Origin: an uncultured Bacilli bacterium
Lineage (GTDB): Bacteria; Bacillota_I; Bacilli_A; RF39; UBA660
Length of the DNA: 61,151 nt
Direction of reading: 5' to 3'
NCBI GenBank assembly: GCA_944359065.1
Contig: CALVSP010000003.1
Location: forward strand, 1 to 61,151
The notes below the pieces were generated by a model. It was given only the letters and a program-made list of their open reading frames with translations, searched no databases and was not told the DNA's origin. Position 1 is the stretch's first letter. The number at the start of each line of letters is the position of its first letter. This document shows positions 16,211-17,953 of this stretch, piece after piece. Both the position numbers and the translations under genes were made by a program.

Positions 16211-17953
16211 TTATATCTGGTACGGACTTGACCAAGTACCATTACCTCCGGTAATGGTGACATCAGAGTTAACAACTATAACCGGACGCAAGCCAAACGT
16301 GTAGGAAACGGAATCGGCGTAGTAGGCGTAACCAAAGTAGCTCACGCTCCAAGCGATAGAACTATTGGTATATGGTGTCATTGTCCAATATGTTGTTGCA
16401 TTACTATAATTACTTGTAGTTGTATAACCGTTAGTCAATATACTACTACTTTGGCTTGATAACATTTCTCCTATTCTTATTAATCCAACTGTTGCTTGTA
16501 TACTTCTTGTTGGATTTTCTTCATTCAATGATTCTTCATAATTATAAATTTCACCGCCAAGGCCATTTTGATACCAAGTATAATTACTTACTAATTTTGC
16601 TTTTTCTGTTTCATTATTATTTGTTAGCCAATTTAATACATCACTATTTAATTTTTGACCTATTCCAGTTTCTGTCGAAAATGTATTGTTGGAACCATAT
16701 GACATTTCATATATTGTTCCAGATGGTTCCTCATAATATCCATCTAGTATTAATTTTGTATTGCCATTACTATCTTTATCTACTACTCGATATTTCTTTC
16801 CGGCATGCATTACATATTCGCCACTTGTTGCTTTTTCATTTAATTTTCCTGTTATTTCTACACTTTTATCTTCGTTTAAAATATATGGCCCGGATTGACT
16901 ACTCCAAGTTGCCCCTAGAGTACCATTACCTCCGGTAATGGTGACATCAGAGTTGGCATTTATAACTGCACGCAAGCCATACGGGCTGGAAACGGAAAAG
17001 TTGTTCGCGCCACCAGTGTAGTACACGTTCCAAACGTTAGAACTATCATATGGTGTCATTGTCCATTGCCATTGTCCTATATTTAAATAGGAACTACTAC
17101 CACCAGCGAGATTATATTCATCTAGTGTTATTAATCCTACTTTTGATTTTTCAGTTGATAAATTTGTTGTACAACTTGTTCTCTCACTATATCTATCATT
17201 TGTTGTTTCACTACACCATGTTTCTTCTTTTATGATATTATTTCCTTTTAATTTTGAATAAAAATAATTATTTAACCAATCTTTGGCATAACTATCATCC
17301 CAATTTGAACTACTTTCGTGATATGGTATCACAGTTACATTTTCATCCGTTATTAATCTTACCGTTCCATCAGCATTGATTCCCATTATACGCCATAAAA
17401 ATCCGGAATACCATATATAATTAGTTGTTGGATGTTCAGATTTTCCTCCATTACCATATGCATCAGGAAGTTCTATAACTTTTGATTTTAAATAACATCC
17501 TCCCATATAACTATAGTTATTATCACCTAGTGTTACACAACCGTTTCCATTTGTTGCTAAATATGGAAATTGTTCTAATACTACCTCTCCTATAGTTTTA
17601 ACTGAACAGTTTTCTTCATATTTAAATTCATATTGTTCATATTCTTCTACCCATTTATATAATACACAACCTTGCATTTGCTCATCAGTTACTGGATTAA
17701 TAATACTATCCTTCAATATACCAGAATTAACTAACGTTGATAACTCTATTTTATTATAAAATGTTTGATATCCTATATCATTAGATATACTATACTCATA
17801 AGCTGCTTTTTCTATATTATTTATTACTTGTTCTAAAGCTTTTTCTTTACTACTTTTAATTGATTTATTTATTATTGGAAAAGTTATTAAAGCTATTACA
17901 CCTAATATAATAATAACTCCTAATAATTCCACTAAAGTAAAACCTTTTTTCAT
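16211..17953 (-). CDS. Type IV prepilin-like surface protein with two tandem DUF6273/C-type-lectin-like domains; DGR target
   Basis: Class III signal KKG|FTLVELLGVIIILGVIA; two domains (WRIMGINADGTVRLI / YRVVDKDSNGNTKLI) each ending WTMTPY...W.V...GLR.VI..NSDVTITGGNGT. Confidence 0.88.
   Translation of the reverse strand: MKKGFTLVELLGVIIILGVIALITFPIINKSIKSSKEKALEQVINNIEKAAYEYSISNDIGYQTFYNKIELSTLVNSGILKDSIINPVTDEQMQGCVLYKWVEEYEQYEFKYEENCSVKTIGEVVLEQFPYLATNGNGCVTLGDNNYSYMGGCYLKSKVIELPDAYGNGGKSEHPTTNYIWYSGFLWRIMGINADGTVRLITDENVTVIPYHESSSNWDDSYAKDWLNNYFYSKLKGNNIIKEETWCSETTNDRYSERTSCTTNLSTEKSKVGLITLDEYNLAGGSSSYLNIGQWQWTMTPYDSSNVWNVYYTGGANNFSVSSPYGLRAVINANSDVTITGGNGTLGATWSSQSGPYILNEDKSVEITGKLNEKATSGEYVMHAGKKYRVVDKDSNGNTKLILDGYYEEPSGTIYEMSYGSNNTFSTETGIGQKLNSDVLNWLTNNNETEKAKLVSNYTWYQNGLGGEIYNYEESLNEENPTRSIQATVGLIRIGEMLSSQSSSILTNGYTTTSNYSNATTYWTMTPYTNSSIAWSVSYFGYAYYADSVSYTFGLRPVIVVNSDVTITGGNGTWSSPYQI
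16235..16387 (-). repeat. Variable repeat 2 (C-terminal) with 3' GGA-triloop hairpin
   Basis: Core 16277-16363 is 44/87 GC and NNC-codon rich; 36 bp (16235-16270) identical to 16919-16954; hairpin ACCATTACC-GGA-GGTAATGGT at 16238-16258. Confidence 0.85.
16919..17065 (-). repeat. Variable repeat 1 (internal) with 3' GGA-triloop hairpin
   Basis: Core 16961-17044 differs from VR2 almost only at codon positions 1-2; hairpin at 16922-16942; 18 bp 5' identity TGGACAATGACACCATAT. Confidence 0.85.

Follow-up and report, generated by a model that had tools for sequence, protein, structure and literature searches.

The window analysed here is a stretch of 61,151 nucleotides that forms contig C3 of G000, the assembly of an uncultured Bacilli bacterium (1.43 Mb, 25% G+C, 85% complete, 104 contigs). 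Its minus strand carries a 580-residue open reading frame (ORF; 16211-17953) whose product combines a pilin-like N terminus with two C-type-lectin-like domains of the DUF6273 type. Each of these domains ends in a variable region (VR) of the kind found in the targets of diversity-generating retroelements (DGRs), and downstream of each VR lies the same short palindrome, translated in frame. The nature of these two palindromes, and their relation to the VRs and to the template repeats (TRs) from which VRs are copied, is the subject of this report.

Two variable regions, each followed by the same hairpin

The internal variable region, VR2 (16966-17046, minus strand), closes the first lectin-like domain, and the C-terminal one, VR1 (16282-16365, minus strand), closes the second, both being delimited by alignment to TRs. 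The G+C fraction at VR2 is 0.45-0.53, against about 0.3 in its flanks. On the same strand a spacer of 23 nt, likewise placed by TR alignment, separates the end of VR1 from what we call hairpin 1 (spacer, 16259-16281), and a second spacer of 23 nt runs from the end of VR2/TR homology, a junction of the initiation-of-mutagenic-homing (IMH) type, to hairpin 2 (spacer, 16943-16965). Hairpin 1 (16238-16258) and hairpin 2 (16922-16942) are exact, in-frame copies of one minus-strand 21-mer that forms a 9-bp stem around a GGA loop and encodes the peptide TITGGNG, near the C terminus in the first case and at residues 338-344 in the second.

The initial annotation of this locus had noted an in-frame GGA-loop hairpin that occurs twice in the one ORF, within 36-bp blocks (16235-16270, the C-terminal copy, and 16919-16954, the internal copy) that are identical although the surrounding domains have diverged. 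Sequence comparison confirms both points, BLASTP aligning just 89 residues of the two protein halves at 48% identity, and it carries the likeness past the blocks, at 87% across 79 nt, into the 3' portion of both VRs. The same annotation placed the hairpin just after each VR; it does lie downstream of both, but 23 nt past the last base shared with the TR rather than immediately behind it. The 21-mer has exactly two minus-strand copies in the window, against 0.00 expected from 100 dinucleotide shuffles, and the plus-strand matches with three mismatches are the same palindromes read in reverse. Folded as single-stranded DNA, both copies form the 9-bp stem with its 3-nt loop, with energies of -7.4 to -7.5 kcal/mol and z scores of -2.8 to -3.7 relative to shuffles. 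Four of the nine stem pairs are G-C (44%), which in absolute terms is not GC-rich but stands well above the genome average of 25%.

Homology between VR and TR stops at a fixed heptamer, beyond which the two kinds of sequence diverge; at VR1 this heptamer is two bases off the usual one. All 15 TR-type junctions run into a different, conserved segment and not into the hairpin, and since VRs and TRs thus continue differently after the heptamer, the hairpin is not part of the TR. The genome-wide search that the initial annotation had called for returned ten sense-strand hairpin matches with at most two mismatches in G000, seven of them exact and three with one or two mismatches, and all ten follow a VR-type junction. 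The stem begins 23 nt past the junction in paralogue classes A and B; in class C the distance is 20 nt, and in class D it is 32 nt.

Adenine-directed variation and a covarying stem across the genus

G000 holds 23 VR-type sites in pilin-like paralogues and three intact TRs (on contigs C6, C11 and C39), each of which stands right behind a target gene and is followed by the conserved segment. The two VRs of the gene on C39 differ from the adjacent TR by 10 and 12 adenine changes and by 2 and 1 others, while those of the gene on C6 differ by 10 and 10 adenine changes and by 1 and 1 others; the paralogues on C39, C5 and C6 depart from the TR nearly solely at adenines (0-2 other changes). For the genus as a whole, VRs were compared with 15 TRs pooled across genomes, and a VR was called fresh if it showed at most two non-adenine differences from the TR that fitted it best. 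The 29 fresh VRs show changes at 327 of 752 TR-adenine positions, compared with 35 of 1655 other positions, and by this sequence signature a DGR is active in this lineage. Relatives carry a full cassette, in the order target, TR, MutS_I-domain protein, bAvd-like protein and reverse transcriptase (RT), the RT beside the target being 332-334 residues long and matching RVT_1 (E 2.3e-15). The earlier proposal that an internal domain can be diversified independently finds support in the sister genes, in which both VRs differ from the adjacent TR almost only at adenines; the VRs of the window itself carry 8 and 5 non-adenine mismatches to the best assembled TR.

The kin of G000 in the databases are metagenome-assembled genomes (MAGs) from chicken gut and other guts, labelled uncultured Bacilli or Tenericutes, and the related MAG records include Candidatus Faecisoma merdavium. 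Our survey of the genus covers 102 VR-type sites in 13 genomes, gathered by junction pattern; 19 pattern matches were set aside as unclassified, of which one (L032:2039) was put back. Stems and loops were scored at 101 sites, the core of L066 being too short, and the alignment comprises 100 rows (61 distinct), with L053 and L066 excluded for insufficient flank. All nine stem pairs are Watson-Crick in 39 sites, eight in 34 and seven in 15, so that 88 sites keep at least seven. The loop reads GGA in 72 sites and GAA in 6, giving a GRA-type loop in 78 of the 101, followed by GGG (5), AAA (4), TCC (3), AGT (3) and others. The GGA loop therefore does not stand as a fixed signal, the more so as one fresh VR is followed by a hairpin with the inverted loop TCC (L064:3592).

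Reverse-complement loop triplets between unchanged arms are found more than once: TCC occurs in L025, L061 and L064, and the AGA loop of L065 has its reverse complement, TCT, in L025 and L056. Such exact reverse complements are the pattern expected from loop inversion at an inverted repeat. A further variation concerns the C-terminal VR of a second paralogue family, behind which two hairpins stand in tandem (at C2:50578 and C6:40073 of G000, and at 15 more class D sites in the genus). The extra hairpin has an 8-bp stem and an AGG loop and starts 8 nt past the VR, before the homologous one at 32 nt; its stem is perfect in 17 of 28 sites. The modular stacking of VR and hairpin in one gene, which had been suggested from the window, goes furthest in a relative's ORF of 1328 residues (L102), where three such modules are accompanied by a fourth, decayed one.

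Aligned across the genus, the stem is conserved in structure rather than in sequence. At the same stem positions the three main paralogue classes carry ATT/AAT (I/N), ATC/GAT (I/D) or TTC/GAA (F/E), and pair 13-21 is seen as A-T, T-A and G-C, the changes between Thr, Ser and Ala being matched by synonymous Gly codons. In the 100-row alignment 89.0% of the cells pair, against 82.2% in shuffled and at most 59.2% in slid alignments, and 44 cells show double changes where 16.9 are expected; covariation scores 0.285 in the real alignment, 0.173 in the shuffled ones and no more than 0.126 in the slid ones. None of 500 shuffles reached the observed value in any of these three measures, while the number of pairs with double changes (4 against 2.9 expected) and the pair-type counts were not significant. 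The stem codons are rare in G000, where ACC makes up 5.8% of Thr, ATC 7.4% of Ile and TTC 8.6% of Phe codons, and ACC is found at the two stem Thr codons in 29 and 31 of the 34 unique class A/B sequences. The loop codon is variable, its residue being G, S, K, R, Q or E, and copies without the palindrome encode the peptide with common, A/T-ending codons. Synonymous conservation and covariation of the arms, which the initial annotation had proposed as a check across homologues, are thus both found, in that the rare codons are kept and the arms covary.

Putative target-recognition elements and the alternatives

We interpret both palindromes as putative DNA hairpin or cruciform elements of the kind used in DGR target recognition, and put the probability of this reading at about three in four. 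It draws on the position of the palindrome behind the VR, its absence from TRs, the conservation of rare codons, the covariation of the arms and the adenine-specific diversification of sister genes, all of which are observed; that the hairpin forms in vivo and raises the efficiency of homing we infer from work on Bordetella phage. The RT of the DGR would overwrite each domain-end VR with an adenine-mutagenised cDNA of a TR, and TR homology would halt at the fixed IMH-type junction, to be followed 23 nt on by the 9-bp stem with its C-GGA-G triloop. Because the signal of an internal VR must be translated, it would be encoded as T-I-T-G-G-N-G, through the use of mutually reverse-complementary codons (ACC/GGT, ATT/AAT). 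Each domain would carry its own unit of VR, junction and hairpin, and one TR could therefore address both domains. The interpretation offered in the initial annotation was on this showing right in substance, partly supported and less novel than had been thought.

The portions of the literature on which the following comparisons draw contain close precedents. Efficient homing in phage BPP-1 has been shown to need a hairpin or cruciform 3' of its VR, and the phage elements are described as GC-rich stems of 7-10 bp with a GRNA tetraloop and a distance of 4-34 bp to the VR (Guo et al. 2011, PMC3240598). The present palindromes resemble these as inverted repeats 3' of the VR at a distance inside that range (23 nt, and 20 or 32 nt in other classes), in a stem length of 9 bp, in the conservation of structure over sequence and in lying outside the TR. 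They differ in having a GGA loop of 3 nt in place of the GRNA tetraloop and a stem of 44% G+C, in their location inside a reading frame, twice per gene, and in being known from sequence alone; the MyDGR search rule, as it is described (PMC6602519), would not report them. In the DGR target genes of Nanoarchaeota (DUSEL4), hairpins with a GRA triloop have been reported to be under selection both as protein and as DNA sequence (Paul et al. 2015, PMC4372165), and these share with ours, by description, both the GRA trinucleotide loop and the position inside the target reading frame. Those systems are archaeal and have one VR per target, whereas a bacterium of the Mycoplasmatota/Bacilli lineage here carries two to three modules per ORF, with direct codon-level covariation. 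Triloops of the d(GNA) type closed by C-G have been described as very stable.

ORFs with several VRs are likewise on record, namely an ORF of Marichromatium purpuratum that consists of tandem FGE-sulfatase paralogues and has three VRs (Schillinger et al. 2012, PMC3521204), and 31 DGRs in each of which a single ORF contains several VRs (Yan et al. 2019, PMC6642488). The arrangement of tandem lectin-fold domains, each with a VR served by one TR, is alike, but no hairpin for each VR is discussed in the parts of these two papers that we compared. The cassette of the relatives, with its target, TR, MutS_I protein, bAvd and RT, corresponds to the MSL and Avd cassettes of 'Architecture D', which include a Legionella DGR (Wu et al. 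2018, PMC5758913); the differences are that in G000 the cassette is unassembled and that extra TRs stand behind remote targets beside housekeeping genes. In a literature search of full texts we found no paper that describes a separate hairpin for each VR of an ORF with several VRs, or codon covariation in such a hairpin, and the supplements of three of the papers (PMC5758913, PMC6642488, PMC3521204) may list cases. Since in-gene hairpins with a GRA triloop and several VRs per ORF have both been published, the present locus is a clear new example and not a new mechanism; its variant features are an AT-richer stem, the triloop, a hairpin that is translated and one hairpin for each stacked VR.

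A number of observations qualify this reading or weigh against it, beginning with the state of the window copy itself. Neither of its VRs is a fresh copy of any TR in the assembly, as VR2 shows 11 adenine and 8 non-adenine changes and no gaps relative to the best of the 15 TRs, and VR1 shows 13 and 5, with 6 gap columns. The window's own TR is just a truncated, mutated remnant directly downstream of the gene (16067-16113, minus strand; 66-74% identity to both VRs), which is without the 3' half of the TR and without the conserved RNA segment that trails the intact TRs on C11 and C39. With its TR truncated and its VRs not fresh, the window copy looks like a decaying or trans-served member of the family. 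A tblastn search of the 85%-complete assembly found no cognate RT; the MutS_I-Avd-RT cassette is absent from the assembly, in which contig C6 ends about 210 nt past its TR, and the sole RT present is a different, partial DGR RT on contig C76.

The survey of the genus adds further points on this side. Hairpin integrity shows no relation to VR freshness (Spearman -0.14, p 0.15, n=101), a weak measure, since the TR used for scoring was in each case the best of the 15 in the pooled set. One fresh VR (L032:2039; 10 adenine and 2 other changes) stands without a hairpin, with 0 Watson-Crick pairs, and another (L037:2684) has a weak one, while at C11:6543 of G000 a hairpin persists behind a VR decayed to 20 non-adenine mismatches. 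The covariation lies mainly between paralogue classes and, these being lineages, represents few independent compensatory events; conservation of the codons immediately upstream of the stem is about equal to that of the stem itself, and a stem with 4/9 G+C and a 3-nt loop is a misfit to the GC-rich stem and GRNA tetraloop of the phages. A related DGR in the genome G047 has an A-rich, TR-like copy with a similar downstream segment and VR-like copies followed by the same peptide (the VR/TR relation being judged by eye), yet its TITGG[DE]G is written in common codons, and the 70 nt behind these VRs give folds no more stable than those of shuffled sequence (z 0.63, -0.06 and -0.40). G047 is one of two outside genomes that encode the peptide without a palindrome, and the distant homologues L105 and L107 keep it in DNA that is not palindromic. 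The outcome named in the initial annotation as damaging to its idea, a peptide kept while the palindrome is broken, is seen in these distant homologues; in the genus 88 of 101 sites retain at least seven pairs. The peptide, kept without the fold in G047, is therefore conserved for protein reasons too, and together G047 and L032:2039 argue against an absolute requirement of the hairpin for homing.

A hairpin in the sense strand of DNA is always an RNA hairpin as well, and the structure might instead act in the mRNA, as a ribosome pause, an aid to domain folding or a protection of the transcript, with an indirect link to the VRs. Its place at domain ends would suit such a role, and the cells that are not Watson-Crick are mostly G.T (36, the G.U wobble in RNA, against 8 A.C), although this excess is confounded by coding, since the change from ACC to ACT is synonymous. 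The exact reverse-complement loops (TCC in 3 of 101 sites, TCT beside AGA) fit inversion at the level of DNA, and lectin-domain ends without a palindrome exist. A scan against Rfam identified no family at the hairpins, its one match being at chance level (E 0.31) and away from both, and a terminator scan detected no terminator-like site at either, and we consider an action in the mRNA to be unlikely. We judge it quite improbable that the palindrome has no role as nucleic acid, with TITGGNG a protein motif and the 36-bp identity a product of descent or gene conversion. The 23 VR-type sites of G000 would offer ample chance for conversion, conservation is similar in the block upstream of the stem, and T-I-T-G-G-[NDE]-G is kept in L105 and L107, where the DNA is not palindromic. 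However, the island of identity is flanked on both sides by class-specific sequence, which is itself stable across 13 genomes, its rare codons are retained against a background of 25% G+C, and copies that lack the palindrome drift to common ones. Moreover, residues 2 and 6 of the peptide change jointly, their codons staying reverse-complementary, while the loop residue is free to change (G, S, K, R, Q, E).

Finally, the hairpins could be sites of recombination or replication pausing that shuffle lectin modules among paralogues independently of retrohoming. Identical hairpins stand at every module boundary, and the number of modules per ORF varies, from two in the window to the three with hairpins and the decayed fourth in L102. 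This account appears very unlikely, in that no breakpoint was mapped to a hairpin, the position of the hairpin is fixed relative to the VR/TR junction and not to domain starts, and the fact that TRs stop short of the hairpin would be left unexplained.

Returning to target recognition, we tentatively extend it to the genus, in a combined form that we regard as possible but somewhat less than probable. One MutS_I-Avd-RT cassette may serve several TR copies that lie behind remote pilin-like targets among housekeeping genes, and a genome of about 1.4 Mb may thereby hold a distributed network of more than 20 modules of VR, junction and hairpin, two to three per ORF. On this view the exact loop inversions (GGA/TCC, AGA/TCT) would be traces of a hairpin or cruciform having formed in living cells. 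As the hairpin is translated, base pairing in the DNA would force covariation of amino acids (I/N, I/D, F/E), which would make this a clean case of a protein whose residues covary because of a DNA structure. About 100 natural variants of one hairpin, whether intact, compensated, loop-flipped or lost as at L032:2039, L049:2676 and L051:2041, stand in this lineage beside VRs of readable freshness, and they offer a ready comparative and experimental test bed for how the hairpin aids target finding. It also follows from their form that present search rules for such hairpins, which expect a GC-rich stem and a GRNA tetraloop, overlook real candidates in AT-rich genomes. For the organism, the data point to massive DGR-driven variation of pilin-like surface proteins in gut bacteria with small genomes.

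The encoded protein and other elements of the DGR family

The target protein carries a prepilin N-terminal methylation motif with its hydrophobic helix at residues 2-24 (17882-17950, minus strand; N_methyl, PF07963, E 8.6e-5, 22.4 bits against a cut-off of 21.2) and is, by this motif, a predicted type IV pilin-like surface protein. DUF6273 matches its C terminus (E 1.8e-6). An AlphaFold model of the C-terminal domain (16232-16930, minus strand), built on an alignment of 84 sequences, is of moderate confidence, with a predicted local distance difference test score (pLDDT) of 67.8. In a wide structure search with VIA-align it resembles TvpA of Treponema denticola (PDB 2y3c; Z 8.1, root-mean-square deviation 4.3 over 139 residues, 9% identity), Mtd (Z 6.0) and numerous C-type lectins (Z about 6). 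With these matches and that to DUF6273, the VR-bearing domain fits the C-type-lectin fold, within the moderate confidence of the model. TvpA shares the C-type-lectin fold and its diversification by a DGR, but it is a lipoprotein with one VR, where the present protein has a pilin-type N terminus and two VR domains. The peptide encoded by the hairpin is positioned after the final strand of the model (E216-220), where the pLDDT drops to 64 and then to 38, and the protein constraint on this tail is probably weak.

The top structural match of the lectin-like model is the N-terminal region of an IgA peptidase from Thomasclavelia ramosa (9qa6; Z 14.6 over 175 residues, 19% identity), far above the matches to DGR targets and lectins. 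Foldseek against the PDB gave nothing at E <= 0.001 for this domain, the best hit being again 9qa6, at E 2.9e-3.

The TRs of G000 on C11 (about 6294-6376) and C39 (about 7619-7700) have no RT nearby, and the TR copies behind remote targets adjoin housekeeping genes (fmt-like and tilS-like, by eye). In the window the gene that follows the TR remnant is presumably rpsB, a name that we give it from its translation. No TR lies within 3 kb of L094, L105, L107 or L115. At L025:2981 (contig C80 of G012) a copy in TR position, with the TR-type downstream segment, is VR-like and has unusually few adenines, and looks like a template that has itself decayed or been overwritten. Between the stop codon of the target gene and the TR remnant we noted by eye a conserved 9-bp stem-loop (16143-16169, minus strand), which is found downstream of five of five family-1 paralogues in G000, also precedes the TR on C6 and is kept even behind paralogues wholly without a TR (C5, C25); its role may be that of a 5' element in the transcript of the TR.

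Contig C76 (4775 bp) bears a second, unrelated DGR, made up of a bAvd-like gene, a TR of its own and an RT truncated where the contig ends, next to genes for a relaxase-like protein and an XRE-type regulator (both by eye); no target for its TR was found in the G000 assembly. Contigs from public metagenomes (X1, X2, X3 and X5) are short, broken across the target gene and mixed with paralogues, and VR1 is matched by identical contigs in X1 and X3, one of which may be the source sample. Elsewhere in the window, the search for VRs also gave a weak match at a 17-nt word that occurs twice, 300 nt apart, at 37564-37580 and 37864-37880.

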